From Candidatus Bathyarchaeota archaeon (lineage in GTDB: Archaea > Thermoproteota > Bathyarchaeia > Bathyarchaeales > Bathycorpusculaceae), in contig CAWDYC010000011.1 in NCBI GenBank assembly GCA_963806535.1, positions 64,001-128,000 on the forward strand: a stretch of DNA of 64,000 nt, given 5' to 3'. Position numbers and translations under genes: made by a program. Shown in pieces: positions 2,058-32,378 of the stretch (its first letter is position 1; each line of letters opens with the position of its first letter). A model generated the notes under the pieces. It did no database searches, was not told where the DNA came from, and worked only from the letters and a program-made list of their open reading frames with translations.

Positions 2058-2834
2058 ATGGGAAGTATAGGCAAGAGTTTCGCATTAATTCTAATTCTAA
2101 TCCTAATAATACCTATCTTAAGTCTGAGTCTATCGTTTGTTAAACCGGCGTTTGCCCAGACAGCGGCTACACCGTCTACTCCAGAATTCACCATTAAGCT
2201 AGGTGTTGCTTCCAACGATGTACCTTCCACTTACTCATTAAATTCGAGTTCAGGACAGACAATAGCGCAACCTGGTTACCATGAAGAGTACACCACTATA
2301 GAATTGGTTATCAAGAATCAACCTCTCGTATTCACCAATTATCCGGGTTGGAACGGTGTAGGGTTCTTCTACAACGTTCGCACAACGACCACACCGGATA
2401 CTGGCAGCTGGAATGAACTCTATAATGCTCAGGATGGATATTTAATCCCAGCAAACAGTTCGTACACAACCGTGTCTATTCCTTTCAAAGGTAATGACAT
2501 GATTGATATTCAAGTTGAAGCGATGATAGGACAAATTGTTAAACTACAAGTATCTGACCCTAACACTCCAAGCCACTGGCGTGATGCAGGTACCAGTCTT
2601 TTTGAAGGTCAATTTAGCGGATGGAGCGCTAATCAAACAGCAACCATTAGCGACACAATTACCTACTTAGAATCTTCTCCAACAGCAACCCCAGCTTTAC
2701 CGTCAGCTAATACTGCTACTTCCTCATCGACTCTCTTTTTGATAATCGCCATAACAATCATAGTAATCGCATTCCTGTTAGGCATTATAATTTCATTAGT
2801 TATCTATTTTAGAAAACGAATAGTCACTAAGTGA
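2058..2834 (+). CDS. Surface protein with signal peptide and C-terminal TM anchor
   Basis: Signal peptide ending KPAFAQ, PSTPEFTIK, IDIQVEAMIG, SGWSANQT, S/T/P linker, TM and RKR tail. Confidence 0.85.
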   Translation: MGSIGKSFALILILILIIPILSLSLSFVKPAFAQTAATPSTPEFTIKLGVASNDVPSTYSLNSSSGQTIAQPGYHEEYTTIELVIKNQPLVFTNYPGWNGVGFFYNVRTTTTPDTGSWNELYNAQDGYLIPANSSYTTVSIPFKGNDMIDIQVEAMIGQIVKLQVSDPNTPSHWRDAGTSLFEGQFSGWSANQTATISDTITYLESSPTATPALPSANTATSSSTLFLIIAITIIVIAFLLGIIISLVIYFRKRIVTK

Positions 2835-2864
2835 CCTTTTCCCACGGTAGCAACAAACTTAATA

Positions 2865-2950
2865 AAATTGTGTCACTCAAAAAATAGTCAATAAACTTAC
2901 TAATTTCGGTAAACCGCTTAGTCAAGAAAGCTTGACGAAAACTCTTTTAT
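2865..2950 (+). promoter_or_regulatory. Motif-A array copy 2 (long form) plus BRE/TATA
   Basis: aaattgtgtcactcaaaaaat-AGTCAA-taaac-TTACT-aatttc-GGTAAA-ccgctt-AGTCAA-gaaagc-TTGACG-aaaactc-TTTTAT. Confidence 0.75.
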
Positions 2951-2983
2951 CGCTAATTACAAAAAAAGACTATTAGAGTTAGA

Positions 2984-3538
2984 ATGAATAAAAAAATAAT
3001 ATCCGCAGTAGCTTTGGTAACTATTTTGTTTGCAACTGTATTCACTGGCACGTTTGTTTATTATAACTCTCAAATTGCAAATCTAAAAATGAAAATCTCA
3101 AGCCTTCAAGCTCAAATAGCAGAAAAGTCGTCCATAAATCTTGTCACAGCATTAGGGGTAACTGAAATAGCTGCTGAATACGGTCTGGGCGGTATTCCAC
3201 CTTATAATCACCTTTGGATTGATGGCACAGTAACAAATCAGGGAGGAGGATTTGTATATTACACAGGATTGCATGTCCTTGCTTATGCTGCCAATGGAAC
3301 TTTGGAAATAAACATGACTGTCCCCATAAATCCGTTGAATGAGAACTCTCAGACGAACACTGGGTGGTACGGCACTGATGAAAGAATTTACGCTTATCTT
3401 TCGAGCTATGGGGATTATTCTTCGTACCAACGTGGAAATTTACGCAGTGGGGAAACATCGGATGTTAATATCCACATTTTTCATGAAGGCATAGTTTCTA
3501 ATTGGACTATAACGCCAGTTTGGACAAATTCACCGTAG
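2984..3538 (+). CDS. N-terminally anchored exported protein with short coiled coil and Ig-like (FxLYD-like) domain
   Basis: N-terminal TM, QIANLKMKISSLQAQI coiled coil, LWIDGTVTNQG...GLHVLAYAANGTL beta-rich domain. Confidence 0.75.
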   Translation: MNKKIISAVALVTILFATVFTGTFVYYNSQIANLKMKISSLQAQIAEKSSINLVTALGVTEIAAEYGLGGIPPYNHLWIDGTVTNQGGGFVYYTGLHVLAYAANGTLEINMTVPINPLNENSQTNTGWYGTDERIYAYLSSYGDYSSYQRGNLRSGETSDVNIHIFHEGIVSNWTITPVWTNSP

Positions 3539-3607
3539 TCAAGACCCCAAAACAATTTCGGATTTGGTTCAAGTATCTCAAAAACTTTGGTAAAAAGTGT
3601 GCCACTC

Positions 3608-3705
3608 AAAAAGAATTCTGAGTGGTTTGCGAAAGACCAAGCTTAATTGAAAAAGGAGGTTTAGTAGAAGTTGCGTGTTTCTTTGCGTTTCTCTGCTTCT
3701 TCATA
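3608..3705 (+). repeat. Shared ~80-100 bp segment, copy X
   Basis: Close match to the reverse complement of 26202..26281, apart from an 18-bp length difference. Confidence 0.85.
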
Positions 3706-3895
3706 GAAACGCAACCTTAGAATTGGGGGCGGTCCCAAATTGTTTGCTTCACCAAGTTCAGAGAGCGTCATAAATTTCTCATAAATAGCAATCAACAAAT
3801 AAGAAAATAGGGGTAAGCAATAAGTGAAGAAGCCAGCAGTAAAAAATTACTAAGGCTAAAGGCAGATGACATCCAGCACACCAGCGTTCCAAGCA
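3661..3895 (-). pseudogene. 3' remnant of a membrane-protein gene
   Basis: Manual translation ...FTAGFFTYCLPLFSYLLIAIYEKFMTLSELGEANNLGPPPILRLRFYEEAEKRKETRNFY*; the 5' part is disrupted and abuts vapC. Confidence 0.4.
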
Positions 3896-3900
3896 TAGGA

Positions 3901-4272
3901 TTAGACGATTTTTATGTTGCTACCAACACTGGCAAGTTTTCGATCCCTTGTTAGCAATACCTCATCGTGCGCCAATGATATGCCGGCAATAAGCAAATCG
4001 TTCTCATTAATCATTCTGCCGGAATCCTTAAGCTCTTTAAAAAGAATCGCGGCTTTTCTTGCAGCGTCACTATCGAATGGATAGATAGTTAATTCCGAGA
4101 GGAAATCTTCTGCCAGCTGTCTCTTCAGCTTTGTCTTATGCTTAAGCAATTCATACTCAGTTATGCTGGTTGTCTTTATTTCTTCCTCGTTGGCGATTTC
4201 TTGTATTAAGGAAACAAGCTTTTCGTCGCCGGCTATGAAATCAATGATAACGCTTGTATCGATTAACATCAT
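3901..4272 (-). CDS. vapC: VapC PIN-domain toxin
   Basis: LIDTSVIID, ITEYELL, INENDLLIAG and LLTRD PIN motifs. Confidence 0.93.
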   Translation of the reverse strand: MMLIDTSVIIDFIAGDEKLVSLIQEIANEEEIKTTSITEYELLKHKTKLKRQLAEDFLSELTIYPFDSDAARKAAILFKELKDSGRMINENDLLIAGISLAHDEVLLTRDRKLASVGSNIKIV

Positions 4273-4505
4273 TATTCCTCTTCGAATGATCTGCCGTAAT
4301 TTGCTTCCCTTTCAGCAGCAATTTGTATTTTTAGCTGCTCAAGTTTTTCCTTTTCGTTTTTCATAACTCCTGCAAATTTCATTATGTCGGTTTTCTTTTT
4401 TGTTGAGCAGAGGCTTTCTTTTATTACTTCGGAGAAGCTTTTTTTGCCTTTTCGCTTTGATAGAAGTTCGTAGACTTCATTTGAGACTGAAATCTGTCGT
4501 GCCAT
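4272..4505 (-). CDS. vapB: VapB-family antitoxin (probable start 4505)
   Basis: MARQISVSNEVYELL...KKSFSEVI DUF217-type N-terminus; translationally coupled to vapC. Confidence 0.88.
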   Translation of the reverse strand: MARQISVSNEVYELLSKRKGKKSFSEVIKESLCSTKKKTDIMKFAGVMKNEKEKLEQLKIQIAAEREANYGRSFEEE

Positions 4506-4724
4506 CTTAGTTCCTTCAATACATAGTGTATACATACTTACTGATAAATCTTCTCAGATGAGGCATCTACCTGAACGATCAGTAGCCCGATTAGCCGAAA
4601 TATGCATTTTAGTACATGTTTAGGTCTGGTATTTTTTACAAGCTATGGAGAAACCGATACTTGGGATAAGAGATCAACAGGGTAACTTCCCAAACTTAGT
4701 TTTAAGGCATCTCTCAAAAACAGC

Positions 4725-4780
4725 AGTCAAAAAACCTTGACTACATTTCAGTCAAAAAACCTTTACGAGAAGCCTTATAA
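4725..4780 (+). promoter_or_regulatory. Motif-A array copy 3 plus BRE/TATA
   Basis: AGTCAA-aaaacc-TTGACT-acatttc-AGTCAA-aaaacc-TTTACG-agaagcc-TTATAA; similarity to copy 1 continues to the ATG at 4805. Confidence 0.85.
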
Positions 4781-4804
4781 CAAAAACCAGTTCCAGATGT
4801 AAAC

Positions 4805-5688
4805 ATGGGTAGCTGCGGCAAAGTTTTCGCAATATTCTTTATTCTAATTATGGTCATCTCAGCTCTAAATCTATTGATGATAAAACCCGCATGTGCGCAG
4901 TCAATACCCACACCCTCTATTCCCCAGTTCACCATTAAGTTCGTAAATGCTTCCTAAGTTTAACTACAACAAATTCTTATACTGGAGTAAATGAAACTCA
5001 GCTAATTATTAATAACTCAATTGAAATTACAATAAATAACCAGTTCTTTGACAATTCAAACAACAAAATATATTACAATATTCGAACTAAACCTCACTTT
5101 TCAGAAAATTGGACTGAAGTTTACCCAATACAAAACAGAACTAGTTCCTACAATGGAGATGGCACTTTCTCTTTTGCATGGTATATTGACGATTCTTCTC
5201 CGAAATCAAATTCAAGTTACACCACTATTGCTTTCCCTGTTGTAGCAACTGAATATTATTCAGAATCAGGCTTTGATATTCAGAGGTACTATTCTGGAGA
5301 TATAAGTCAAGAAGGTAGATACTTTGCGTTTTTACATGGTATTCCAGCCAATGCTCAAATTGATTTCCAAGTAGAGGCATTAGTTGGGCATAATTCTACA
5401 TACTGGTATATTCAACATCCTCTTTACCCTACGATTGGTGGATATTCAGCCCCTGCCATTGCATACGACTTAACAAGTGGTTGGAGTAATGCACAAACAG
5501 TAACTATAAGTTCAACTTCTGGTCACCAACTTCAACTCCTACCGTTCCAGAGTTTCCGCTTGTTAGCAATTTTGCCCTTGTCACTCTTAGTGCTCTTTAT
5601 TGCGTTTAAGCAAAAGCTAAAGAAACCAAATCTCCTAGGTTGGACAATGAGTGACCAGCGAATAATGGATGTGTTAGCTCATGGCTGA
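4805..5688 (+). pseudogene. Frameshifted paralog of 2058..2834 with PEF-CTERM-like tail (missed by ORF track; 3' end approximate)
   Basis: MGSCGKVFAIFFILIMVISALNLLMIKPACAQSIPTPSIPQFTIKFVNAS, then after frameshifts IYYNIRTKPHFSENWTEVYP...QIDFQVEALVG...SGWSNAQTVTI...PTSTPTVPEFP, a hydrophobic stretch and a basic tail. Confidence 0.75.
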
Positions 5689-5932: not shown

Positions 5933-6059
5933 AAATTTGAAAATAATGTGCTAAATTTGTCAATGCCGTAAAATCAGTACCTAACGAATAATTGTGCTAA
6001 TTGTAAGGCTAAGATTCTGTAATTTATGGTTTGAATCCAGAAGGAATAGAATACCTCTC

Positions 6060-6384
6060 ACTTCCGAATAGATGAACCAATACCAGAAAAACCAAAAGGA
6101 ATTCCATACACCTTTAAACCTAACACTAATGTTTGGAATTGCCCTCAATGTGGAAGTTAGAATCCAAACGATTATGAATTCTGTTATGTATGCCGTATAG
6201 TTCCTAAACCAAAAGAAGCCTTAACGATAAAACAGTAATTCTTCTTTTAACTGAAATTTGAAGGGGTAATATTTGGATGGTTAATATTGATAAAGAAATA
6301 GACGTTCCTTGTTAGTACTGTGGACATAAAACTAAGATCAGGATTTCTGGAAGTCTACCTATTGTACCTAAAAATATAGTATAA
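6060..6384 (+). pseudogene. Decayed small zinc-finger ORFs
   Basis: VWNCPQCGS*NPNDYEFCYVC (RanBP2-like, TAG at 6158) and MVNIDKEIDVPC*YCGHK (TAG at 6313). Confidence 0.5.
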
Positions 6385-6450
6385 GAAAAAATCAAAAATT
6401 CTTCAAGTTTCTTTAGTTTACTTTACCGAATATTTTTGTTCTTCGTAACA

Positions 6451-8226
6451 TCAGATTTCTTGTTCTGATAATAATTTAAATTCAAACCTATCGGCATTAA
6501 GGAAGTTTCTCAACCTTGCTTTCTCAATCTCTAAAGTCCACTTTTTAAATTCTCCCTGGGGAATGACGTTTTGGCGTATAGCATTTTGAATATTATCAAT
6601 TAATTGCCTTATATCACCCGTATCGTTCTCAAAAACCTTGTATTCCCATGGGTTTACCCCATTTCTTAAGTTGATAAAATATTGTGATAAGGCTTCAAGT
6701 TTTTTAATGCTTTTAATTATTGGATTCAGCCTATCTTTGAACTTTGGTGTTAACAATTCAAGTTTTCTATTATTTTCATCAAGTAAAGGGTTAATCCATT
6801 CACTAACCACTTTTCTTAGATCGTTTCTTTCATCTGAAAGTCCAAACAAAAAGCAATCCTGATGTGAGTTTGTTATTTTGAGATTATCTACACTTAGAAG
6901 TGTTAACGAGTCATTTACTCGCTGTAACCAAATATCCTCAAATCCATCTTTGGAGATTATAGAATGCAGCAAGCTTCTAAAGCTCATTTGAAGTCTTGTT
7001 TGTGAAGGATTAAACTCAAGCTCGTTCCAGCTTTTTCTTATTTTCTTTTCTAAAATGCTTTGAGCTTTTGCCGTAAACTCTTCTTGTAAACACGTTCTTA
7101 ATAGAGATTGCCAATCAGGTGTATCTCCAGATTTCTCCTGTTCTAAAAACCCCTTTTCAGTTCTAATAATATTTTGAAGAGCTCTTAAGTAATTGTTTTT
7201 CAGCAGATGAATAATAGTTGAAAAAGGATAAGGTAAGCAGAAAACCTTTCCTGATAATCTTGAGAGAGCTTTTGTGTTTTTGTCAACGTATCTAAGTTTT
7301 GTTTCATAAAGTTCTTGAGCGTTAGGGTCAACTATAATCACGTTTAGGTCTTCATTTGCTCTTGCAGCATCCCATAACATATGTATGATATATTCATCTC
7401 TAAACGAGTATCCAACAACTACTAAGAATTTTGCTCTTTGAAAAAGCGTTTTTTTAAACATTAACTGTAAATCTGTTAGTGGTTCAACGTACTCTGATTT
7501 TTGTGCTGGATAAATTAGCAAAGGCTTTACATCTTCGCCATAGATAAGTCTCAAATCTATAGGGTCTTCAAACATTTCCACGAAAGCAGAAACAGGAATT
7601 TTAATACATTCTTTTGTCTTCTCATTTTGATACCATATTACTGAACCATGAAGCTTATAGTGAAAAACATCATAATTTTTGAAGTTATTTTCATTCCAAG
7701 TAATATCAAACCCATCAGTATAGCTACGATGATTTAGATAGCAAGATTGTTCAATACATGTATCATAGTTTGTTGAAAAAATTTCAACAGGTGAATCAAA
7801 GCTAAACAACTCTTGCAAATATTCAAGATTTTTTTGGTTTTCAATCACCACTTTTCTTCTAATAAAATTTTGGAGGAACCTTTCAATGAATAAAAGCTCT
7901 GATTGCTTCAGTTTATATTTTAACTCAAGGTTATTGTAAAAATAAAGAAGCGGTTCTTTATCCCTTCCAATAAGACGGCGAAGCGTGTCTAAGAGTTGTT
8001 CAACATCTACGCTTTTTTTGTCTTCACCCAAGAGCTTAACATTATACTTCTCTCTTATTTTCAAAATTCTAGATAAAAGTTCACCAAATTCAGGACGTTC
8101 ATTATTGACATAACTTTCAAATTCTTTGACAAAACTGTAAGTATCTGGAACGCCAGCATCTACAGATGCTCCAGCACCAAAAAGAAAAACCAGTGCTTCT
8201 CTGCGTTCTTTCTCTGTTGTACTCAA
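6451..8226 (-). CDS. SIR2-like (SIR2_2) domain protein, putative NADase defence effector
   Basis: FLFGAGAS, FSTNYD, YKLHGS and VVVGYSFRDEYI motifs; long helical C-terminus; AT-rich. Confidence 0.85.
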   Translation of the reverse strand: MSTTEKERREALVFLFGAGASVDAGVPDTYSFVKEFESYVNNERPEFGELLSRILKIREKYNVKLLGEDKKSVDVEQLLDTLRRLIGRDKEPLLYFYNNLELKYKLKQSELLFIERFLQNFIRRKVVIENQKNLEYLQELFSFDSPVEIFSTNYDTCIEQSCYLNHRSYTDGFDITWNENNFKNYDVFHYKLHGSVIWYQNEKTKECIKIPVSAFVEMFEDPIDLRLIYGEDVKPLLIYPAQKSEYVEPLTDLQLMFKKTLFQRAKFLVVVGYSFRDEYIIHMLWDAARANEDLNVIIVDPNAQELYETKLRYVDKNTKALSRLSGKVFCLPYPFSTIIHLLKNNYLRALQNIIRTEKGFLEQEKSGDTPDWQSLLRTCLQEEFTAKAQSILEKKIRKSWNELEFNPSQTRLQMSFRSLLHSIISKDGFEDIWLQRVNDSLTLLSVDNLKITNSHQDCFLFGLSDERNDLRKVVSEWINPLLDENNRKLELLTPKFKDRLNPIIKSIKKLEALSQYFINLRNGVNPWEYKVFENDTGDIRQLIDNIQNAIRQNVIPQGEFKKWTLEIEKARLRNFLNADRFEFKLLSEQEI

Positions 8227-8361
8227 AGCTTTTCCCAGACTATTCTTAATGACTGTGTAAAGTTATAACATTTACCAAAGTTGTTAGTCTTAAGTTAAGT
8301 TCATCTAATGATAAATCTTAAATCTGCATAGAGTGGAATAGACGAAAAGAGAAAAAGCAAA

Positions 8362-8502
8362 ATGGCTACTTACAAACAGATTCAAGCCTATGTAAAAAAC
8401 AAACACGGTTTCCTGCCTAAAACTTGCTGGATTGCTCACGCAAGAGAGGTTTATGGTCTTCCATCAAGAAAAGCATGGAACAGACTTTTAAAAACTAACT
8501 GA
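8362..8502 (+). CDS. Small conserved-looking hypothetical protein, probably 3'-truncated
   Basis: MATYKQIQAYVKNKHGFLPKTCWIAHAREVYGLPSRKAWNRLLKTN (46 aa, below the ORF cutoff); resembles small ATYK.IQ.YVK..GF.PKTCWIAH proteins. Confidence 0.55.
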   Translation: MATYKQIQAYVKNKHGFLPKTCWIAHAREVYGLPSRKAWNRLLKTN

Positions 8503-8698
8503 GTTCTTAACTCTAAGTTTCCAGAGTACATAAGAACGTAGATCTTAAGCAAGAAAAACTATAAGTTAGGTATCATAGTAAAGAAAGAAGTTAGTTTAAT
8601 GCGAAGGTTGAACTTAAGAAATTTCAATACTAAAAACATTGATACTTTTAAGTTCCACACCCACATTAAATAGGAAACACAAGGAAGATGCGGGCAAT

Positions 8699-9792: not shown

Positions 9793-10206
9793 TTGTCTAC
9801 AAGATTGAAAGACAAAGAGGAAAAAATCCAGCAAATAATAGAACAATTAACTAGACGAATCAGCTAAGGGAACACTGGTTGTTGTTGAAGGCAAAAAAGA
9901 TGAGTTAGCGCTTCAGAGAGTTAGGCGTTAGCGGCAAAATTTTTACTGTGAAGACAGGCGGCAAATCCTTTTTGCAAGCAACTGAGGAAATAGAAAGATT
10001 AGGTATCACCGAGGTTATTCTTCTGTTGGATTTTGATCGAAGAGGAAAAGAAGGCACTTTGCGTCTTAAAATACAACTTGGAAAGGGCAAAAATCAAGCC
10101 AGACATGAGGTTTTGGCTTGAGTTGAAAGCGTTGGTTGGAAGAGATATCCGATGCATTGAAAGCTTGCAATCCTTCTTGAGTACTCTTCAAGAAAAAGTT
10201 AGCTAA
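9793..10206 (+). CDS. Small TOPRIM-domain protein (UPF0292-like), about 3 frameshifts, absent from ORF track
   Basis: Manual translation gives VVVEGKKD...LRELGV...VILLLDFDRRG...DIRCIESL directly after tyrS. Confidence 0.75.
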
Positions 10207-10461
10207 GCTCATATCGAACTATTAAATTCTTAAAATTTTTGTATTTTTTAAGAATAGGTTGTTTTTTCTTTTTTCAAAATACATATAGTTCTTAATGCTG
10301 CAACCTGACCAAATGGTCCGATAATTCAAAATCCAAAAAATAAAAAAAAGGTGATTACTCCCTGTTACAGCCATTAATTTGGAAGATTACTAGTAGTCTA
10401 TATTCTCGCTTCAAATTTGTTAAATATGATTTCTTCTAGACTCTTTGATCGATAAAACACG

Positions 10462-10722: not shown

Positions 10723-10763
10723 TTTAGCTCTAAATAATCTCCTCATGTCAATTGTGACTACTG

Positions 10764-11000: not shown

Positions 11001-11184
11001 ATTTTAAGTTTCCTCGAATTTTCTTCATGATTTTTTACTTTTAACTTCAGCCGTTCCACTATTTTTACTCAATGGTTGGTTGGACAAAAATTTAATCCAC
11101 AGCATTACAGTTTTATTGGTCTGTTTTTTATCCATAGAACCCTTTTTATAAATCTCAAACGTTCCCTAGTAATGGCGAAATTTT

Positions 11185-18034: not shown

Positions 18035-20237
18035 TCAATCTTTGTTATATTCAGCTGCCTTTTTAGTTTCAATGGGGAGAGTAACTTTGAATGTTGTTCC
18101 TTTGCCTTTCTCTGTTTCAACCCCTATAGATCCATTATGTGCCTCAATTACGCGTTTGCATATTGCTAAGCCAAAGCCCATACCTTGCGCTTTCGTAGTG
18201 ACCAATGGTGTGAAAATTTTCTGCAAGATTGCTTCTGGAATGCCACTGCCCGTATCAGCGAAAGTAATTTCAACGTTCTCATTTGTTTGCTTGCAACATA
18301 TTGTAATTGTTCCTCCGTTTGGCATGGCTTCTATCGCGTTTTTGACAAAGTTGATGAAAACGCGTTCTATCTTGTTTTTGTCAACTCTAAAAGTTGGATC
18401 TTCTGAAACGTTGTTTATGATCTTTATGTTTTCTGGAATTCTTACCATCGACAACGCGTTTACCAGAACGTTCTGCACGGGGTTTAATTCAAGTTCCAAT
18501 TGTATGTTTCTAGCATAGTCTAATAGGTCATTGATGATTTTGTCTGAATGGTCAATTCCTTTCCCGATTATCTCAAGCAGTTCTTTAGCCTGCTCTTCTT
18601 TAATTGAAGTACCTTTCTTTTTCAAGAGGTAGACTGCGTTTTTTATTGCTGCTAAAGGATTTCGCAAATCATGACCAACCATTCCTGCCTAGCTCCCCAA
18701 TGGCAACTAATCTTTCTGCATTAAACAGCTTCTTCTCCAATTCTTTCTTTTCAGTTAAATCTCTAAGTATCGTAACAAAACCGTACGGCATATGCTTAGA
18801 ATCCTGCAAGGAACTAATAGCCAGCTCAACCGGATATGTGGATCCATCTTTCTTTTTGATGTTGCACTCAAAAATTACCTTTGAACCATTTTCAACGAGA
18901 CCTTCCAAAAGTTTAGACACTCTTTTAGAATCTTCGATGGACATAAAGGAGAAGGCTGGTTTTCCAATCAGGTCACCACGGGTGTAACCAGTGAATTCAT
19001 TCATTTGCCGATTGTATTCAATTATGTTTGTTTGGAGGTCGGTTGCTATAATAGTATCTGGAGAGGCGAGGAATATGCTCCTTAACTTTTCTTGACTATT
19101 TTTTAGTTCTGAAGTTCTTTCTTCAACTTTTGTTTCAAGTCTTTCAGCATATTTCTTAAGCGTCTCACGGGAATCATGTATCGTAGCAAGCAAATCATTA
19201 ATTCGGTTGCCCAAATTCGACAACTCGTCATTTCCTTGAACAGTAACCTTATTTGGATTGTCACTGTCGGGTTTTATTTTGGCTACATCATTAGTGAGTC
19301 GACTTACTCTCGAAAGTATAACTTTATCTAGCAAAAAAGAAGTTACAACAAAAATGACAATGCCCAAAACAGCAAATGAAACAATAAGATAGTTCAAACT
19401 ATTTTCTGCCTGCAAGTATTCAGACCTGTAACTATCGACTTTTGCGATTAAAATGGGTGAGCCGCTCACATCTTGGAGCAAAACGTAGCCTGCTATATTA
19501 GTTCTGTTTGTGACTTGTGCAAAGACTGGTTTTTGAAGTGAAAGACTCTTGCTTGCTAATTGAAAATCCGTTGGCATTTGAGTACCTATCGTACGTATTT
19601 GGATAGATAATCCGACAGCTTGGGAAAGAGCGTTACACTCTGATTGGTCGAGAAAAATGCCTATGATTACTGCTCCACCAACAGGCCCCTCAGCTGCACT
19701 GGTTAGAATAGGCTGTGAGATTATGAGCATTGGAGACCCTTCTAAGCGAATAAGTCCCCCTTCGCTTTGTTGTTTGTCATCAGTATAAAGTAAATTATTT
19801 TTAAGCATTTGGCTAATTTCGGAGTATGAAATGTTGATGTTTGTTTGATTTTCAAGGTTTAATGCTTTTCCAAATACTAATTGTCGGGATTGATTGACAA
19901 AAAGCATCATGTTTAGTCCTAGATTGATTAAGGTCTGGTCGGGCAGGTTCGCAATTATGTAGTCTGTATTGTTGTCTTGAATGAATTTGTAAGTGTCGTC
20001 CCATTGGGACCAGTCAATGTCGGTTTGATTTAGGTTTTGAAGCTTTATGTTCAGGTTTGTGACAAATCTTTGGGCATTAGATTCGGCTTCTTTGTTCTCG
20101 GTTACAGTGATACTGTCTAACATTATTTTTTGAGCAACAGTATAAACAACAGACATTAACATAATTGTTGTTAAGAGAAGTATGAGGAGTGTTTTTGAAC
20201 GTATTTTCACGAATAGGAAACCGCCGTACGCGTACAA
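18035..20237 (-). CDS. Sensor histidine kinase CHASE4-HAMP-PAS-HisKA-HATPase (frameshift near 18685)
   Basis: DWSQWDDTY (CHASE4), GNDELS (HAMP), PAS, HDLRNPL, N-box, DTGSGI, GMGFGL. Confidence 0.9.
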
Positions 20238-20671
20238 CTAAATTTCAAAGACGATGTAGTAAAGAATTATGAATTAGTGGTAGTTAGTCTGAATACGGTC
20301 CGAATTGAATACTTGTTGAAACTTTGAATCTTACTCGAATAAAGCCTGAGATGACATTTCCAACAGAGACTCAGAATTTTCCAGTGCGGTGTTCCTTCTT
20401 TTTATATAAAAGAAGATGGCTAATCAATAATTTTTTCCAAAAAATGACATGATTTAGAAATTTTTCTTTGAAATAGCCTTATTTCAATCTTTTTTCTTGC
20501 TCTTTTTGAAATATGCCTAGGGGACAGCGTTTATTAGTCTCGAAAAACATCTTTAAATTAATCCCAAAAAAATGGGAAAAGTCTTGTTGCCTCAAACCAA
20601 GCATGCGTTTGCTTTGTGGTTGCAGTGACTTAAATCGCTTATCGCTCAACATTAAAGTTGAAGAAAGCATC

Positions 20672-21097
20672 ATGTCTAAACAAAGAAGGATGATTAAGGT
20701 GGAAACGCCTAAAAAAACAATACTTGTCGTTGACGATGATAAATCAATTCTTAGAACGTTCACGCGTATTCTTCAAAAAAGCGGTTATGAAATTGATGTT
20801 GCCGAAACCGGAAAAGAAGCAATTGAAAAAGCAGAAAATCGACATTTCGATTTGGCACTAGTTGACATCAGACTTCCAGATATGGATGGCACTGATTTAC
20901 TTGCAAAACTCAAAAAGCAGCTTCAGACCACAGTAAAAATAATGATTACTGGTTTTCCATCACTCGAAACTGGTGTTAAAGCTCTTGACGAAGGTGCGGA
21001 TGCTTATTTGGTTAAGCCTGTAAAACCTCAGGAACTGCTAATGCTTCTGGAAGAGAAATTGAAAAACAGGGAAGACCCTCAAGAAGCAAAAAGCTAA
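20672..21097 (+). CDS. Single-domain response regulator (start uncertain)
   Basis: ILVVDDD, LVDIRLPDMDG, MITG, YLVKP. Confidence 0.9.
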   Translation: MSKQRRMIKVETPKKTILVVDDDKSILRTFTRILQKSGYEIDVAETGKEAIEKAENRHFDLALVDIRLPDMDGTDLLAKLKKQLQTTVKIMITGFPSLETGVKALDEGADAYLVKPVKPQELLMLLEEKLKNREDPQEAKS

Positions 21098-21144
21098 AAA
21101 TTTAAGGGCAATCTGGCCCAATGAAGAATAATTTTAATATAAAG

Positions 21145-25120: not shown

Positions 25121-25547
25121 GAAACTTGTTGATTAAGCCATTAGCTATTAAGAGTTTTGCTTCGGCTTTTTCTACGGATTGTTTGTTTAGAGATTTTTGG
25201 CTTTGTTTGAATTTTTTTGGTTGCAGTTTGGTTTGGTTGTTTTTTTAATCAGAACTTGAAACGGTTGTGCGTTGTGAAGACGCCAAAAGAAATAGAAAAA
25301 TCTTTCAGCGACTACCTATAGGTCAAAATATATACGTTTTGTCAGTACAATTGTATATACAGACGTTATTTAATGATTTTGTCACGATTAAGAACAGCAA
25401 CATTTGCGTTGCCATTTTTGAACAAAGAAATTCAGACTGTTTTTCAAAAGCAGAATCTAAATCCTTTACAGACTGCCTAAACAGAAATCTCAAGACTGTG
25501 TGGCCGCAGTAATGGTTTTAGGATTAAAGCAAAGCGTAAACCAAATA

Positions 25548-25862
25548 TTATTTTTTGAGTCCACCAAGTTTCTTGGTGAGCTCATCAAATATGAGATATT
25601 TCTTTTCTTTGCCTAAATGAAAGACAACTTTAGAAACCATTTCTTCTGAGATGGTAAAGATATAGTTTAATTTTATGACGCTGTCTTTTATTGCGCCTTC
25701 ACTCTTAGTTAGCGGTATTCCTTTCATCTTGAGATTGCTCGTTATGCCGGCTATCACAACGTTTCCTAATTCTTCGAACAGAACTACTGCTGGCCTAGTC
25801 TTCACTTCAGCGGTTTCTGTAAACTGTACACTTGCAACGATAATATCTCCAGGTTTAAGCAT
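25548..25862 (-). CDS. mazF: PemK/MazF-family toxin
   Basis: PGDII...F...VKTRPAVVL...IAGITSN...DSVIKLNYIFTI. Confidence 0.85.
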   Translation of the reverse strand: MLKPGDIIVASVQFTETAEVKTRPAVVLFEELGNVVIAGITSNLKMKGIPLTKSEGAIKDSVIKLNYIFTISEEMVSKVVFHLGKEKKYLIFDELTKKLGGLKK

Positions 25863-26082
25863 CTTTCCAAGCCTCATCTTCCTCGTTGTCCCATAATTCT
25901 TTCATTTTTGCTTGCTGAATCTTGTGAATAAACTCGTCATATTGGCTTTTTTTCTTGGAATCTTTTGCTATCTTTATTAAATCGGAAATAGTTTCATTGT
26001 ATGTTTCTCTTGGATACTTTCTAATGCTTTTTAGCTCCTTAACGACTGATTTCTTAAGCTGTATTGTAGTGGCTTCTTTCAT
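25855..26082 (-). CDS. Putative antitoxin
   Basis: TTIQLKKSVVKELK..K.YPRETYNETI N-terminus, acidic LWDNEEDEAW tail; overlaps the toxin start. Confidence 0.8.
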   Translation of the reverse strand: MKEATTIQLKKSVVKELKSIRKYPRETYNETISDLIKIAKDSKKKSQYDEFIHKIQQAKMKELWDNEEDEAWKDA

Positions 26083-26201
26083 TATACATCGCCTATAACT
26101 CACTATAACAAATTATATATAACTTTCGCATCATGGCTCAACGCAACTTTCAATAAAGGACTCACCTTAAGCCTATATACAAAGATTAAGTTCTACGCTT
26201 T

Positions 26202-26281
26202 TATGAAGAAGCAGAGAAACGCAAAGAACCACATAACTTCTACTGCGCTTGGTCTTTCGCAAACCCTCAGAATTTTTTTTG
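26202..26281 (-). repeat. Shared segment, copy Y
   Basis: Reverse complement matches 3608..3705. Confidence 0.85.
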
Positions 26282-26295
26282 AAATACTGCAAATT

Positions 26296-26964
26296 TTACG
26301 CTACCTTCGTTTTTCGATGCCTTCTATAAAGCAATAGAGATGCAATGACAGCCACTATAACTATTGTAATAACAACTAAAATTGTCGAAGTTGGAAAAGG
26401 TTCTGGTTTAGTTAGTTTTTGTGAGTACATCTCATTCAAGAAGATTAAAGTGGCAAAACTATGGGAACCGTCATGTGTATTAACGTAGACCGTCAATGTA
26501 TGGTTTCCATAAGGAATTTCGCTGAAATTTACAGTTATTGAGGCATTAATTGAGTCTGCACCACCAGTTGGCTGGATGCCGAATATTTGGTGAATACCGT
26601 TAATCCAATCTGCTTGGTAATAAACACTGTTAATTACCCAAAAATACGAAGCTACGTTTACGCTTAATGTAAAGTTGTTCGTTTGCAATACAGTTTGATT
26701 TTGAGGAAATACTATTTCACAGATTGGAGGTATATGTTCAAGTTCATCTGCGGGCGGCTGAATAACAGATGAATTTGTGTGCCAAAGTGTAAAAGAAACA
26801 GTTGGTTCTGGAGGTGTCAAAGTTGCAATAGGTGTAGGTTCAAGAGTAGGTGACAAAGCAGTGGCTGTATAAAGGAGCCCTTTTTGTTGATTAGAAAAGT
26901 TAACTGCGACAAAAGCTAAAGCAATTATTGTGATAAGCGTTAATGCAACTTTTTTTTTCTTCAG
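26296..26964 (-). CDS. Surface protein with Ig-like domain and C-terminal anchor (5' frameshifts; start approximate)
   Basis: KKKVALTLITIIALAFVAV signal upstream of ORF 26296..26856; PYGNHTLTVYV Ig strand; PEPFPTST, TM and RRHRK tail. Confidence 0.75.
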   Translation of the reverse strand: MKKKKVALTLITIIALAFVAVNFSNQQKGLLYTATALSPTLEPTPIATLTPPEPTVSFTLWHTNSSVIQPPADELEHIPPICEIVFPQNQTVLQTNNFTLSVNVASYFWVINSVYYQADWINGIHQIFGIQPTGGADSINASITVNFSEIPYGNHTLTVYVNTHDGSHSFATLIFLNEMYSQKLTKPEPFPTSTILVVITIVIVAVIASLLLYRRHRKTKVA

Positions 26965-27000
26965 GAGAACCCCCTGATTTAAAAGAATATGAAGGCGTGA

Positions 27001-27043
27001 CTTTTAGCTCTCCCTAAAGAACAGGCTGTTCCACCAGAAGAAC
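27001..27043 (-). promoter_or_regulatory. Motif-B promoter module copy 1
   Basis: Minus strand GTTC-N8-GAACA-N3-TGTTC-tttaGGGAGAGC-TAAAAG; 36/43 identical to 30575..30617. Confidence 0.7.
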
Positions 27044-27055
27044 AAGTGGTTTGAA

Positions 27056-27131
27056 TTAAAAGGCTTCTCGTAAAGGTCTCTTGACTAAAATCAGTCAAGG
27101 TTTATTGACTATTTTTTGAGTGACGCAATTT
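27056..27131 (-). promoter_or_regulatory. Motif-A array copy 4 plus BRE/TATA
   Basis: Minus strand aaattgcgtcactcaaaaaat-AGTCAA-taaacc-TTGACT-gatttt-AGTCAA-gagacc-TTTACG-agaagcc-TTTTAA. Confidence 0.85.
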
Positions 27132-27259
27132 AATATGACAAATCAGATGATTCTATATGAGTCTCTAAATTTTAGAGCCAATACACAACATGTAAGAAGG
27201 TCCAAGCCAAAAAAGTCTTATATGTACTTGATTTTAACATACAGAAGAGCGCGATCAAT

Positions 27260-27640: not shown

Positions 27641-27933
27641 AAACGGTTCTTTTATTCAATATAGCTCTTCTTTTGATTGAAAAAAGTCTCTATTAATAAC
27701 TTGACCTTTTTTTGAAAAATTGTGTAAAAAAAATTCAATGCGTCATAGTTATTAATTTTCAAAGTAAATCGAGTGCCCATTTATTGTTGGGAACTAAAAT
27801 TTAGTGCACACACACAAAATTTTTTAGATTAGAGTTTTCTGCTCGGCACATTCTACTGGTGTATAGGCGCGTCAGAGTTTAAGGCAAAAGTTATTATCTG
27901 TTGCTCAAAGACAACAGCAGCGGAAGTACTTGA

Positions 27934-28482
27934 GTGAAAACAGGTAAAATCCTGAAGAGCTTCAACGCCAAAGACAGAAGAAATGTAATTCTAAGGACGC
28001 CAAGAATGGAAGACTTAGACGATTTATTAGATCTGATCAACTCGCTTGTTGATGAGAATGCGGAGATTTTGATTACTCGGAAATTTACGCGAGAGGAAGA
28101 GGCGGAATGGCTTACTAATGCGTTGTTACGACTGGAAAAGAATGAGGTTTTCTTTCTTGTTGCAGCAGTGAATGGGGCGGTTGTTGCTTCGTCCGACCTT
28201 CAGCTTCAAGATGAAAGTCAAGAATGCACTGGATTGATAGGAATAATTGTGAAAAACGGTTACAGGGATTTGGGAATTGGGACTGAGATTATGAAAACTC
28301 ATTTTGAGAAGGCAGTGTTTTTTGGGTTAAAGGTTTTGACTGTGAATGTTTTTGCCACGAATCAGCGGGCAATTCACGTTTACGAAAAAGCTGGGTTTTT
28401 TCAAACGGAGAGAATTTCGCAGAAGCATTTTAGACAAGGTAGATTCATTGATGAAGTCATAATGAAAAAATCAATTTGTTGA
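27934..28482 (+). CDS. GNAT N-acetyltransferase
   Basis: YRDLGIGT, VFATNQRAIHVYEKAGF. Confidence 0.9.
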   Translation: MKTGKILKSFNAKDRRNVILRTPRMEDLDDLLDLINSLVDENAEILITRKFTREEEAEWLTNALLRLEKNEVFFLVAAVNGAVVASSDLQLQDESQECTGLIGIIVKNGYRDLGIGTEIMKTHFEKAVFFGLKVLTVNVFATNQRAIHVYEKAGFFQTERISQKHFRQGRFIDEVIMKKSIC

Positions 28483-28619
28483 ATGTTGCTGGATTAAATT
28501 TTAATGGACATACTCAAGCCTTTAATTCATTTGCAGATAGGCTTTCCAGCTGAGTCACTATCGTGTAGGGAAAGACGACCCTAAGCGAAATAATTGCATA
28601 AAAGAAAAAGTTTTAGCTT

Positions 28620-29045
28620 CTATGCGAAGCTAACAAATTTTTTCGGTTGATTATTCGTTGCAAAAGTCCAGAAGTGAGCTGTGCATTTGATGATTTTAAA
28701 GAGTATCAGCCCTGGGTTTTCCGGTGTTAGTCCTGCCTGTTTTAGGAAGGGTCTGGCGTCAAGAAGTTTCTTTTTCATTTCTACGTCATTAATGAATTCA
28801 ACTGTGCCTGTTACTCTCATTTGCTGCATTTCTTTGCTTTTAGGGTTAAAGAAGCATACTTCAACTTGAGGTTTAGCTTTCAACTGTTTATAGATGTCTT
28901 TTCCAGCGGCAGAGCTGTAATATAGACCTGACTTGTCGGCGTACCAAAGTTGAAATCCTCTGACTCGAGGTTGTCCACTATCTATAGTTGCTAAGAAGCC
29001 TATTGGATTTTCATTTGCAAACTTGATATATTCGTCAAAATCCAT
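28620..29045 (-). CDS. Pyridoxamine 5'-phosphate oxidase-family flavin-binding protein
   Basis: FLATID.GQPRVR, KDIYKQLKAKPQVEVCF, QMRVTG. Confidence 0.88.
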   Translation of the reverse strand: MDFDEYIKFANENPIGFLATIDSGQPRVRGFQLWYADKSGLYYSSAAGKDIYKQLKAKPQVEVCFFNPKSKEMQQMRVTGTVEFINDVEMKKKLLDARPFLKQAGLTPENPGLILFKIIKCTAHFWTFATNNQPKKFVSFA

Positions 29046-29197
29046 CTAAATCACCAAATTACTATTTCATCACCCTGAAAGTAATAACTTTTGGTTTACT
29101 ATATGACGGATTCGCTTCGTTTTTTAAATTCTGGTGCTTAGACTATGGTGTGCATTAAATTTTAATCCCACCGACATATGTTAAGGATAGGTGTTTT

Positions 29198-29320
29198 TCA
29201 AAACCAGTTTTTTGACAATATTTCTCTGCAAACTTTGCAAACACTAAATATTGTTTCGCTTTCATAGACAATTTCGGTCTCAGTTGAACTGCACGAAGGA
29301 CATTCATCATTAGTTTTCAT
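29198..29320 (-). CDS. Zinc-ribbon microprotein (40 aa)
   Basis: MKTNDECPSCSSTETEIVYESETIFSVCKVCREILSKNWF with CxxC...CxxC. Confidence 0.55.
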   Translation of the reverse strand: MKTNDECPSCSSTETEIVYESETIFSVCKVCREILSKNWF

Positions 29321-29779
29321 TTTTAAGCACTTTCTAAAATTTGTTTGCGCCTGAGCTTTTGGCGTTTCTTTTGGTTTTTCATTTAGTATTCTCTTGATGG
29401 AAGCTTGTAAACATGCTTTTGTGTTCCAGTTTCTGCGTGTCTTGGTTAATTCTTTGAGGTTTAACGAAAATAAGTCTTATGAATCAATAATATGAATCAC
29501 GCACTTTCCTTAGGAAATGTATGTTTATTGAAATATGTGTCTTAACTTCTAATTAATACATACATTATCTTACCTACCTGCCACAGAAAGAAATTTTTTT
29601 AACTCTTCCAGTAGGTTCAATTTAATATCTAAAACCGTCAGAAACGTAAATGTGTGTGGGATTAAATTTTAATCCCAAACCCAAACGTCCGCATCCACGC
29701 GCCCGTGTATGTGTCTGTGTCTCTAACTATCTGTCGCTTGCTCTGTCAATCTGTCCCTGTAAGCCCATGTCTGTCACTC

Positions 29780-30541
29780 TCACCGTTTGTGTTTCTTGAA
29801 GTAAACCAACAAACCAGCAACTACAACGGATGTTAATGCGCCTGAACTCATGGCAACTGTTGAAGTTGGAAAAGGCGCGGGTTGTGATATGGTGAAGTTT
29901 ATTGTTTCAGAGGGTCCAATGTTTCCGGCAAGGTCTTGAGCGTAGACTGTAACGTTATGCTCTTGAAAAGACAAATTGGCTAATGTTGTGTTTCCAGCAA
30001 CGGTTACATTGTCCTGTCCATCTAAAGAATAACCAATCCATGAGGTAGGTTCATCTATTGTGAAATTTAATGACAAGTTGTTTTGGCTGTAAGTTTTGTT
30101 TTCAGGTGATAGATTTGTTATGATTGGAGGTTTTCCGTCATCTATCGTAAAGTAGGCTGTAGCATTATCCAAAAAAGTGTGCGGTGGAGTAGTGTCCCAT
30201 TGAATTTCTTCATAAACAGTAACGTTGTGTGAGCCCTCCGGCAATTTTGGTATAATTCCTGACCCTGTAACTGTTATTTGAAATGACATGTTGTGAGTTT
30301 GAGTTATAAGAGGAATTGAAAAATTGTCTTTTCCGTCTACGCTGTAAGTCATCGAATAATAGATATTATTTGCCCCTAAGCCACCAGAACGTACACTTAG
30401 ACCTAACGGCGAGCCAGAATTATAGGTACTGTTAGTAGGATATAAAATGTCAACAGCTTTGACCACCTTGACAACCTGAACCCCAAAAATAAGTACGAAA
30501 AGCATCAAGAATAGAATTAATGCCAATGCAGTTTTCTTCAT
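29780..30541 (-). CDS. Surface protein with two Ig-like domains and C-terminal anchor
   Basis: Signal peptide; YSVDG...GSHNVTVY and GYSLDG...HNVTVYAQD repeats; PAPFPTST, TM and KKHKR tail. Confidence 0.85.
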   Translation of the reverse strand: MKKTALALILFLMLFVLIFGVQVVKVVKAVDILYPTNSTYNSGSPLGLSVRSGGLGANNIYYSMTYSVDGKDNFSIPLITQTHNMSFQITVTGSGIIPKLPEGSHNVTVYEEIQWDTTPPHTFLDNATAYFTIDDGKPPIITNLSPENKTYSQNNLSLNFTIDEPTSWIGYSLDGQDNVTVAGNTTLANLSFQEHNVTVYAQDLAGNIGPSETINFTISQPAPFPTSTVAMSSGALTSVVVAGLLVYFKKHKR

Positions 30542-30574
30542 GCACCCTCACACCAAACTATTTGTGGTAAGCGG

Positions 30575-30617
30575 CTTTTAGCTCTCCCTAGAGAACACTT
30601 TGTTCCGCAAAAAGAAC
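30575..30617 (-). promoter_or_regulatory. Motif-B promoter module copy 2
   Basis: 36/43 identical to 27001..27043; TAAAAG lies ~34 bp before the ATG at 30541. Confidence 0.7.
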
Positions 30618-30676
30618 GAAGAATAATAGCAGAAGAGATTGAAACGCATCTAACATTTCCCCCCAAGAATTTTGAT

Positions 30677-30722
30677 TTCTCGCAAAAATCTTTTGACCGC
30701 GATAAGTTAAAGTTTGTTTACA
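30677..30722 (-). promoter_or_regulatory. Degenerate motif-A array copy 5 overlapping the upstream stop codon
   Basis: Minus strand TGTAAA-caaact-TTAACT-tatcgc-GGTCAA-aagatt-TTTGCG-agaa; no TATA box retained. Confidence 0.55.
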
Positions 30723-32275
30723 ATTGACGTTTGTGTTTTTTTTTGAAGTAAACCAACAAACCAGCAAATACAGCCATTAAACTAAGTAACATGGAAATTG
30801 TAAATGAAGGAAACTCTGGGATTGCGATTTCTGGAATTAGTAAGGGGTTCATGAGCGGAAAACGGTCTGTATTGTTATTGTAAATTACGTAGGGTGTGTC
30901 GCCTATTCCTGAGGCGTCAATTTCTGTGGCGTTCGGATACTTTGTTAGATAGTCGCTCCAGTAGTTCCCTGCTGTGCCATTGTCCCACGTGCTCACCGAT
31001 ATTGGGAGGACATTTGGAAAAGGCTCAAGAACGATGTCGAACCACTCTTTGGTGTTGTTTATGAAATTGTTGTTGTAAAGAATGTTGATTCCGCTATATT
31101 CAGTGTAGATGCCCGTGGCGCTGTTAGTTATGTTGTTTCTAGTTACGATGTTTGAAGCTGCTGCACCAAAGTAGATGCCGTTGCCGTTTCCTGTTATCAC
31201 ATTTGAGTCAATGACGTTGTTTGCGGAAAATGTGCCTAATCCCGCGCCCAAACCGATGCCATTTTCGTTATTTGCAATTATGTTTTTGCTTATTGTGTTG
31301 TTATTAGATGCATCTAAACTGACGCCAAACAGATTGTTTGAGAACGCGTTGTTAATTATTGTTGAGTTCTCGGTGGAACCCTAAGTATACGCCTTCAGCG
31401 TTGCCAGACAGGTTTAGGTTTGAGAGAGTTATGTTTGTACAACCTATGAGGGCAACGTATCCAGCGTCGATAGGAATGGACCTATCATGCTGGTTGACCC
31501 AATAATAGATTGGCTTACCATTCACCTTGTTTGAAGTGTCTACATCGACGCCTTTGAGGGCAGTAATTCCTTGAACATTAAAGACGTGGAAGCCGTAGGT
31601 GTTGCCGTTCAGAGTGTTATTTCTTAAAACACTGCCTGCGCCACCACCAACGAAAAAGCCGTACTTGTTATCCGTTAACGTGTTTCCAAAAACATTGGTG
31701 TTGGTGAAATATGTTAGTGTGATTCCTACATTATTGTTTGTAACGTCATTACCTGAAATGATGTTGTTCGAACCGGCGACTGCGCTCTCCAGTTCAATTC
31801 CCGATGTGTTGTTTAGCAAGTTGTTTTCAACGATTCTGTTGTTGGAAGACAATCCAGATATTTCGACGCCAATGAGGTTTCCTTTAAGATTATTTTTAGA
31901 GATTATACAGTTGTTAGAACCAGTAACGAGAATGCCGGCTCTTCCCAGAAATCCTTGAATTACTACGTTTCTCACTGTCACGTTACTTCTCCCTTCAATG
32001 TTTATTCCAACCAAGGTATCGCCGTTTGCTTGAAGAGTATGCCCTGCACCGTCGATTACAATATTGTTGGTTTGAACTAAAATGGTGCCGAAAATGTCAC
32101 CGTTAAAGGTGTATGTGTTTCCGTTTCTTTCAAGCAAGTTTGTGTTTGGTTCAACACTTCCATCAGGCTTAATTGTGAGGTTAAGCGGTTCTTGTGCCTT
32201 CACTTGTTGACTGACAGTTATGCATGATGATGTTAGGAAGAGAATAACAAACAGTAGAACGAAACCTTTACCCAT
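30718..32275 (-). CDS. NosD/CASH parallel beta-helix surface protein with PEF-CTERM-like tail (frameshift near 31375)
   Basis: IKPDGSV..IVIDGAGHTL, Asn-rich helix repeats, GKPIYYWVN, GNYWSDY..GIGDTPY..DRFPL, IPEFPS, TM and KKKHKR. Confidence 0.88.
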
Positions 32276-32308
32276 GTCACATCGAGTTCTACTTTGGAGT
32301 TTTTCGTA

Positions 32309-32378
32309 ATAAAAGGGTTCTCGTCAAGCTTTCTTGACTAAAAGGTTTACTGAGGTTAGTCAAGGATTATTGACTAAC
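32309..32378 (-). promoter_or_regulatory. Motif-A array copy 6 (long form) plus BRE/TATA
   Basis: Minus strand gttAGTCAA-taatcc-TTGACT-aacctc-AGTAAA-cctttt-AGTCAA-gaaagc-TTGACG-agaaccc-TTTTAT. Confidence 0.85.

Follow-up and report, generated by a model that had tools for sequence, protein, structure and literature searches.

In the sap surface-layer (S-layer) gene family of Campylobacter fetus, surface-protein genes are exchanged by homologous recombination through conserved flanking sequence. A dif-like site is about 28 bp long (11-6-11), is recognised by XerA and lies on either side of a mobile module. Most integron cassettes lack a promoter and have attC 3' of the gene, with core sites of 7 bp. 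In excerpts of the work of Ghaly et al. 2022 on archaeal integrons (PMC9668308), an integron is defined by an IntI gene and/or at least two attCs less than 4 kb apart, and toxin-antitoxin (TA) systems make up 10.5% of the annotated cassette proteins. The archaeal activators EarA, Ptr2 and TFB-RF1 bind sites abutting the TFB-recognition element (BRE), according to an excerpt of PMC5512572. Bathyarchaeia are abundant; an excerpt of PMC10477458 describes their laboratory cultivation as rarely reported and pure culture as never reported. Here we describe motif A, a palindromic element at gene boundaries in a 64,000-nucleotide (nt) stretch of DNA from a Candidatus Bathyarchaeota archaeon (GenBank assembly GCA_963806535.1, contig CAWDYC010000011.1, positions 64,001 to 128,000), which is called the window below. 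An earlier note on this DNA had proposed that motif A bounds cassette-like units in two accessory zones and that crossover within it may shuffle surface-protein genes between loci. Our analysis points, with a probability of roughly 0.8, to motif A being the shared composite promoter/operator of a cell-surface protein regulon in one Bathyarchaeia genus, with occasional recombination between its copies. This proposal starts from observations on the geometry of the motif, its dispersal, its conservation in the genus, the kind of gene downstream, the accessory setting and the mosaic junctions.

The genome under study (G000) comprises 2.95 Mb in 12 contigs, and the window corresponds to positions 64001-128000 of contig C11. 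From 5' to 3', motif A is made up of a distal palindrome AGTCAA-N6-TTGACT, a spacer, a proximal palindrome AGTCAA-N6-TT(T/G)ACG, the sequence AGAAnCC and a TATA-like box TTTTAT or TTATAA, after which ATG follows at about 24-35 nt. This layout is common to all five window copies, which are listed here with a degenerate copy and a lone half-site:

1978..2033, plus strand: motif A copy 1, with distal palindrome 1978-1995, proximal palindrome 2003-2020, AGAAGCC and TATA-like TTATAA at 2028-2033, 24 nt from the ATG of gene 2058..2834
2886-2950, plus strand, with an upstream flank at 2865-2885: motif A copy 2, with damaged distal palindrome AGTCAAtaaacTTACTA, proximal palindrome 2920-2937 and TATA 2945-2950, in front of gene 2984..3538
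4725..4780, plus strand: motif A copy 3, in front of a pseudogene with ATG at 4806
27056-27110, minus strand, with a flank at 27111-27131: motif A copy 4, with TATA 27056-27061, proximal palindrome 27069-27086 and distal palindrome 27093-27110
32309..32375, minus strand: motif A copy 5, with TATA 32309-32314, proximal palindrome 32322-32339 and distal palindrome 32358-32375 (offset 36), in front of 31352..32275
30668..30722, minus strand: degenerate motif A, with half-sites TGTAAA..TTAACT and GGTCAA..TTTGCG; its TATA is lost, the position reading AAAATT
3537..3542, plus strand: lone AGTCAA, overlapping the TAG of 2984..3538

The palindromes measure 18-20 bp, have arms of 6-7 bp and a spacer of 4-6 bp, and follow the consensus AGTCAAGAAACCTTGACT. 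The pattern AGTCAA-N6-TTKACK-N7-TTWTAW matches five times in the window, as against 0.03 +/- 0.17 times in shuffled sequences. Both overlaps with stop codons described by the earlier note exist. The degenerate copy, 30722-30668(-), covers the TAA (30718-30720) of the upstream beta-helix open reading frame (ORF) 30718..31251, and AGTCAA at 3537-3542 covers the TAG of 2984..3538. However, the bare hexamer occurs at chance level in the window (54 times against 45.9 +/- 7.0 expected, a count reached by 14 of 100 shuffles) and no partner TTGACT was found for the one at 3537, so that this half-site carries no weight.

Motif A is not confined to the two zones but is dispersed over the genome. A position weight matrix built from its copies (proximal unit plus TATA) and scanned over the genome gave 44 sites of at least 14 bits with a bimodal distribution: 33 sites reached at least 33 bits, while the next best scored 27.6. 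The strong sites are spread over 8 contigs, and about 35 dispersed copies are 80-90% alike across about 55 nt. A distal palindrome accompanies 26 of the 33 strong sites, at -24/-25 in 18 cases and at -32/-33/-36 in eight. An ORF on the same strand begins within 150 nt of 33 of the 35 sites with at least 26 bits, and among these ORFs the distance from TATA to start is 23-26 nt in 13 and 33-39 nt in 10. The central 6 nt of the proximal palindrome read GAAACC or the complement GGTTTC, and the occurrence of both is expected for a symmetric dimer site.

Conservation was assessed with the exact 31-nt IUPAC pattern of the proximal unit in 41 genomes: G000, 24 others of the genus and 16 from other families of the order. 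The pattern matched 18 times in G000 and was present in 19 of the 24 genus genomes but in only one of the 16 from other families; the reversed pattern, used as a control, gave no match in any of the 41. As in a regulated archaeal promoter, a TATA-like box is combined with sites in fixed register, and the targets are dispersed, coherent and conserved across related species. Our literature search found no paper on promoters, regulons or transcriptional regulation in Bathyarchaeia.

The genes behind motif A form a coherent set. A hydrophobic signal-like N-terminal segment is present in 32 of the 33 downstream ORFs and a C-terminal transmembrane segment with a basic tail in 17, and Pfam assigns to the products parallel beta-helix, PQQ/BamB-type or Kelch beta-propeller domains, or nothing. 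Those of the window are:

2058..2834, plus strand: surface protein of 258 amino acids (aa), beginning MGS, with a signal-peptide-like N-terminus and a C-terminal transmembrane anchor followed by a basic tail
4806-5630, plus strand: pseudogene behind copy 3, with a stop after 50 codons
26296..26970, minus strand: surface protein, ORF 26296..26856, a distant paralogue of 29780..30541 (25% identity, E 4e-9)
29780..30541, minus strand: surface protein of 253 aa with a signal peptide and the C-terminal anchor AGLLVYFKKHKR
30718..32275, minus strand: parallel beta-helix ("NosD-like") surface protein, split by one frameshift near 31350 into ORFs 31352..32275 and 30718..31251

For the protein encoded by 2058..2834 there was no Pfam or NCBIfam family, and no relative was confirmed in the genome contigs. 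The gene name NosD, used in the earlier note, could not be kept: the beta-helix protein scores only 41-46 bits, against a cut-off of 300 for the NCBIfam NosD model. Its repeats continue in another frame past the frameshift, which may mean a pseudogene or an assembly error. In 26857-26970(-), the signal-anchor part of gene 26296, there is no ATG, GTG or TTG start and the frame is open up to a CTG, which aligns with the ATG of the paralogue and adjoins a run of nine A; the gene may begin at a non-canonical start, be dead or contain a homopolymer error. The regulon gene C5:219443 is present in three of 40 other genus genomes, and footprinting of its promoter gave no useful alignment. The Zn-ribbon-like ORF 32420..32716 upstream of copy 5 was considered as a recurrent regulator partner and dropped, since it occurs only once in the genome.

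On the basis of this sequence evidence we propose the following mechanism. The two 18-bp palindromes upstream of the BRE-like AGAAnCC and the TATA box TTTTAT would be the sites of a dimeric transcription factor. Since the proximal site abuts the BRE, this factor would most likely be an activator which helps to recruit TFB/TBP. Transcription is predicted to start about 24 nt past the TATA box, and thus many of the mRNAs would be leaderless. The units appear to be single genes with their own promoter and a recurrent 3' element, packed in indel-prone (insertion/deletion-prone) regions and often lying beside TA pairs, and this packing would account for their cassette-like appearance. In compact tandem arrays under common regulation, the promoter of such a single-gene unit is necessarily found at a gene boundary and may overlap the previous stop codon. 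Finally, the dispersed copies may occasionally recombine or be converted by ordinary homologous recombination, and this exchange of promoter copies would give rise to mosaic copies and to different genes behind the same upstream flank.

Further recurrent elements and the TA pairs of the two zones lie close to the motif A units:

27001..27043, minus strand: motif B copy 1, GTTCT-N6-GGAACA-N3-TGTTCT-TTAGGGAGAGCTAAAAG, between motif A copy 4 and gene 26296
30575..30617, minus strand: motif B copy 2, between the degenerate motif A and gene 29780
3582..3713, plus strand: C-element, a recurrent element 3' of genes, with the hairpin CACTCA-N10-TGAGTG followed by an rpoN-derived copy
26196..26282, minus strand: C-element copy just 3' of gene 26296..26856
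3901..4272 and 4272..4535, minus strand: VapC (PIN; Pfam E 5.9e-15) and VapB antitoxin (E 9.4e-13)
25548..25877 and 25855..26103, minus strand: PemK/MazF toxin (Pfam E 4.8e-8) and DUF7557 antitoxin (E 6.1e-7)

Motif B has the general form GTTCT-N6-8-(G/A)GAACA-N3-TGTTCT followed by TAGGGAGAGCTAAAAG, and it exists in six copies in the genome, the others being at C3:200798, C3:198537, C10:87726 and C8:137259. It looks like a second type of operator/promoter or a leader element. Genes 26296..26856 and 29780..30541 have the same leader with motif B, and the position of this conserved element between motif A and the start codon, pointed out previously for both, was confirmed. Only these two copies of the six have motif A in front of them. 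The restriction to two related genes points to a duplicated unit consisting of motif A, motif B and the gene.

The second part of the C-element corresponds, on the minus strand, to the last ~20-40 codons of rpoN and the bases beyond them, and is 91% identical to the rpoN 3' end over 81 nt (rpoN is C2:36184..36414; PF01194 confirms the ORF). Eight dispersed copies were found in the genome, the six outside the window at C3:308373, C3:310937, C3:374122, C9:81359, C8:11797 and C8:188759, and at least seven of the eight are located directly 3' of the stop codon of a motif-A gene. Five to six of the eight are followed by a TA pair, two of these pairs being named by reading of the sequence and not by Pfam. 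In the window, Pfam bears out the presence of a TA module in both zones (3901-4535 and 25548-26103). C-element-like pieces match in many genomes of the genus. The C-element is possibly a terminator or an integration scar.

Traces of exchange between copies were found within G000 and in comparison with G013, the closest relative, whose leuS and tyrS DNA is about 86-88% identical. Copies 2 and 4 share the 32 nt aaattgYgtcactcaaaaaatAGTCAAtaaac, and their common 21-nt flank is the first half of the C-element, truncated identically in both, with the same junction to the distal palindrome. This part of the mosaic described in the earlier note is real. Its other part, the similarity of copy 4 to copy 1 farther downstream, is not diagnostic: the shared string AGTCAAgagaccTTTACGagaagcc recurs identically at C3:372424 and in G013 at C8:31304 and C32:11419, and is thus merely the family consensus. 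In copy 2, the left part of copy 4 is combined with the right part of copy 5, and the proximal half of copy 4 matches that of copy 1.

The window segment 3830-4779 comprises VapCB, a 190-nt spacer and copy 3's distal palindrome. Its 95%-identical counterpart, G013:C32:10500-11448, sits in the leuS-adjacent zone of that genome; with the C-element the homology extends over about 1.17 kb. It stops inside motif A, where the two genomes differ in spacer, proximal half and TATA variant, and the gene downstream in G013 encodes an unrelated surface protein of about 486 aa. The G000 sequence C3:369325-370839 is 86% identical to G013:C3 as far as motif position +18; its motif copy is decayed, and the sequences that follow are unrelated. 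Among the 35 copies in G000, the right flanks form 24 homologous pairs (paralogous genes) and the left flanks a single pair over 24 nt. The alignment of the copy 3 unit with its paralogue at C6:103953 begins exactly where the distal palindrome does and continues to the anchor-coding end at about 5630. This pair is 75-80% identical overall, but a 90-nt tract (5112-5200) is 100% identical to C6:~103500, which argues for gene conversion between copies.

G013 is colinear, in a single contig, with positions 70-35000 of the window apart from seven indel regions (no strand applies):

1951..5660: segment 1a, between a conserved element (1690-1948) and gene 5681
5945..8645: segment 1b, with the SIR2-like gene 6451..8226 and without motif A; G013 has about 1.26 kb of other sequence
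10196-11135: indel region
17738-20518: indel region; G013 has 334 bp there
21106-22142: indel region
25209..27203: variable region 1, between leuS and gene 27260
27675..32885: variable region 2, 5.2 kb in the window

This comparison covers the tyrS and leuS sides, whose alignment across relatives the earlier note had called for. Segment 1a is also absent in G003, G012, G009 and G010 (match table), and in G003, G012 and G016 gene 5681 directly adjoins tyrS, segment 1b being missing. On the leuS side G016, G004 and G003 agree with the comparison to G013. Variable region 1 measures 2.0 kb here, 166 bp in G004, 658 bp in G016 and 1065 bp in G003, and in G013 it is replaced by 4.4 kb of other content; variable region 2 is reduced to 328 bp in G013, about 250 bp in G016 and about 790 bp in G004.

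The zones are thus accessory, as had been claimed, and indel-prone, with single surface-protein genes and TA pairs, but their breakpoints lie mostly away from motif A. Twelve of the 14 breakpoints between the window and G013 are more than 100 nt from any copy. The two closer ones are 1950/1951, 27 nt from copy 1, and 27204, which is separated from copy 4 by 94 nt when counted from its distal palindrome and by 73 nt when counted from the end of its shared flank. From the closest motif A, variable region 2 is 530 nt away at one end and 510 nt at the other, and segment 1a is 880 nt away at its right end. Four of the seven indel regions have no copy within 800 nt. Likewise, a 9.5-kb variable stretch on contig C3 starts 3 kb from the nearest copy.

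Seven public sequencing runs, none of which contains this strain, were compared with the window, and at most 0.06 of the sampled words was found in any of them. Contigs from four of the runs yielded pieces mostly from relatives (85-95% alike); the identical ones were few short pieces with a depth of 2-3 from run X3. The joints 25161->27265 and 27642->32961 in such contigs match relatives without variable regions 1 and 2, a comparison below which the strain level is not reached, and loose ends around 27057-27111 and 29785-29819 correspond to short conserved modules in other loci or organisms.

The possibility that motif A is the site of a dedicated cassette-like system, neither integron nor dif, in which a tyrosine recombinase encoded elsewhere cuts the N6 spacer and moves genes, was weighed against these data. 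The palindrome arms and the 4-6-bp spacer resemble in size the 7-bp integron core sites, but single-strand folds of motif A are weak (-3 to -11 kcal/mol, z -0.3 to -3.8) and consist of short local hairpins only, and RYYYAAC...GTTRRRY core pairs 40-130 nt apart are not enriched in window positions 1-34000 (4, against 7.1 +/- 3.4 in shuffles). A whole-genome search for PF00589 had six matches, on C6, C3 (two), C4 (two) and C8, among them at least four open frames and one broken. It provides candidate enzymes in the genome but none on C11, the contig of the window, in which the earlier note, too, had recognised no integrase gene and no canonical attC. The truncated C-element junction of copies 2 and 4 and the VapCB block ending inside motif A in the other zone of G013, like the four G013 loci described below at which homology ends at the motif, would suit such a system, but the breaks in the motif are at differing positions and 12 of 14 indel breakpoints are remote from it. 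One duplicated upstream-flank family (L115, L122) even reaches 240-600 nt beyond the motif. Orientation and distance to TATA and start codon are constant at 33 loci on 8 contigs, which is not required of a recombination site; for 23 of 33 ORFs, 23-39 nt separate the TATA box from the start codon. In contrast to a 3' recombination site of promoterless cassettes, motif A lies 5' of the ORF, and variable segments are not flanked on both sides by its 18-20-bp palindromes with their 6-7-bp arms. Motif A does not behave as an integron-like site and probably not as a dif-like one, and we consider a dedicated system highly improbable.

Several observations weigh against the promoter/operator reading or parts of it. 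The distal site is not recognisable in seven of the 33 strong copies, and the helical phasing of the two palindromes is variable (24/25 or 32-36 nt). For two strong copies, C5:172494 and copy 4 of the window, no ORF beginning at a canonical start codon lies within 150 nt, and no regulator of motif A was identified. Ten motif A loci of G013 were compared with G000, and eight of them, having a unique upstream match, were informative. In four of the eight, homology ends at -58, -42, +18 or +29 of the motif, breaks which a pure promoter model can accommodate only with the help of recombination or chance; in three it ends 290-370 nt upstream, and in one it runs through motif and gene, the gene being colinear between G013:C52 and G000:C5. 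The recombination part of our proposal rests on few junctions; four of eight breaks near the promoter are suggestive, but by a rough estimate not clearly more than random breaks in short intergenic regions would give.

Motif A might not recombine at all. A constrained promoter alone would stay alignable beside genes with fast turnover, and ordinary duplication, insertion and deletion would create arbitrary breakpoints. Surface genes do turn over fast: one of the ten G013 motif-A genes has a syntenic counterpart in G000, the others finding their best tblastn match at 25-55% identity elsewhere in the genome, and the C5 regulon gene mentioned above is similarly rare in the genus. Many window indels have no motif A nearby, and with short upstream intergenic regions a break within about 90 nt of a promoter is estimated not to be rare by chance. 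However, the VapBC block is joined to different proximal halves, TATA variants, unrelated genes and zones in two genomes, copies 2 and 4 carry different proximal subtypes behind the same non-consensus 21-nt flank, and the 90-nt identical tract means that conversion does happen. We therefore regard the absence of recombination as rather unlikely. Of the shuffling by crossover in motif A that had been proposed, the mosaicism of the copies and some homology breaks between species inside the motif are supported, but the behaviour of a dedicated recombination site is not.

It is also possible, although this idea is tentative, that the surface-protein genes form a cassette pool which works without a dedicated recombinase. 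Motif A (5') and the anchor-coding stretch plus C-element (3') would then serve as homology arms, their homologous recombination would exchange genes among loci and among lineages, and TA pairs would be found between the units. As a part of this idea, the rpoN-derived fragments may have been left behind by an integrative element for which rpoN was once the target.

The surroundings of the motif A units yielded some additional observations. The interval from the non-coding element 1690-1948 to tyrS is an insertion hotspot across the class. The element is upstream of tyrS, on the same strand, in 58 of 80 loci. Of these 58, 32 have a gap of up to 450 nt between the element and tyrS, 12 have one of 451-1500 nt and 14 one exceeding 1500 nt; that of the window is 6696 nt long. 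This block of about 260 nt was aligned in 56 Bathyarchaeia sequences, with many columns more than 90% identical. Within the genus its identity is 88-95%, compared with 72-88% for tyrS, and its consensus fold has -22 kcal/mol versus -2.2 +/- 1.6 for column shuffles. It contains no convincing ORF and has no Rfam match even at E<=1, and is a candidate for an unknown non-coding RNA. The RNA of the signal recognition particle is encoded elsewhere (C4:359408), and a weak RNase P match was found at C9:153724. Rfam and tRNA scans of window positions 1-34000 gave no matches; neither a tRNA-type integration target nor a known RNA family accounts for the element. The public relatives found with the tyrS product are all metagenome-assembled genomes of Candidatus Bathyarchaeota/Bathyarchaeia, the isolate names often being of the peat type (fen, bog, palsa, SPRUCE).

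In segment 1b, 6451-8226(-) encodes a 591-aa SIR2-like protein with a weak likeness to NCBIfam anti-phage SIR2 (E 3.9e-14, far under the cut-off). At the corresponding site, G013 lacks the region of a sensor histidine kinase (ORFs 18669..20237 and 18035..18682) that lies beside the response regulator 20513..21097 in the window. The search of the genome with the G013 flank L118 (-220 to -125) turned up a dispersed repeat of ~90 nt with 78-85% identity in at least 15 places in G000, for example at C10:58808-58901, C6:105069-105163 and C4:413304-413391, which may be similar to a miniature inverted-repeat transposable element. An island at C6:86932-100657 has a tyrosine-recombinase-like gene (314 aa) at its start and motif-A surface-protein genes at its end, and includes at least five small gene pairs that are TA-like by sequence reading.

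A regulon with at least 33 targets would provide a ready-made cell-envelope regulon and, with motif A, a precise DNA bait for its regulator. Motif A could further be used as a marker for the annotation of fast-evolving surface-protein genes, most of which have no protein family match. It is also a warning that a palindrome repeated at gene boundaries in accessory islands can be merely a shared promoter. Worth following with population data are the mosaic junctions and the rpoN-derived 3' element beside TA pairs.

Compared with known systems, motif A is similar to the fla promoter of Methanococcus maripaludis in that EarA, too, targets a cell-surface structure, according to an excerpt of PMC5512572. 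EarA-type promoters have 6-bp repeats, whereas motif A has two 18-bp palindromes and would have at least 33 dispersed single-gene targets. Its sequence is apparently restricted to one Bathyarchaeia genus, in view of its presence in 19 of 24 genomes of the genus versus one of 16 outside. With integron cassette arrays it shares single-gene units in accessory regions with TA modules among them, but IntI, attI and attC clusters are lacking, each gene has its own promoter and the repeat is 5' of it. As in the sap family of Campylobacter fetus, variable surface coding regions are bounded by conserved sequence and different genes are found behind the same flank. In contrast to sap, the 5' arm is just about 55 nt long and primarily a promoter/operator, with no invertible segment or single expression site evident, and the events seen at motif A are between species and not phase variation.

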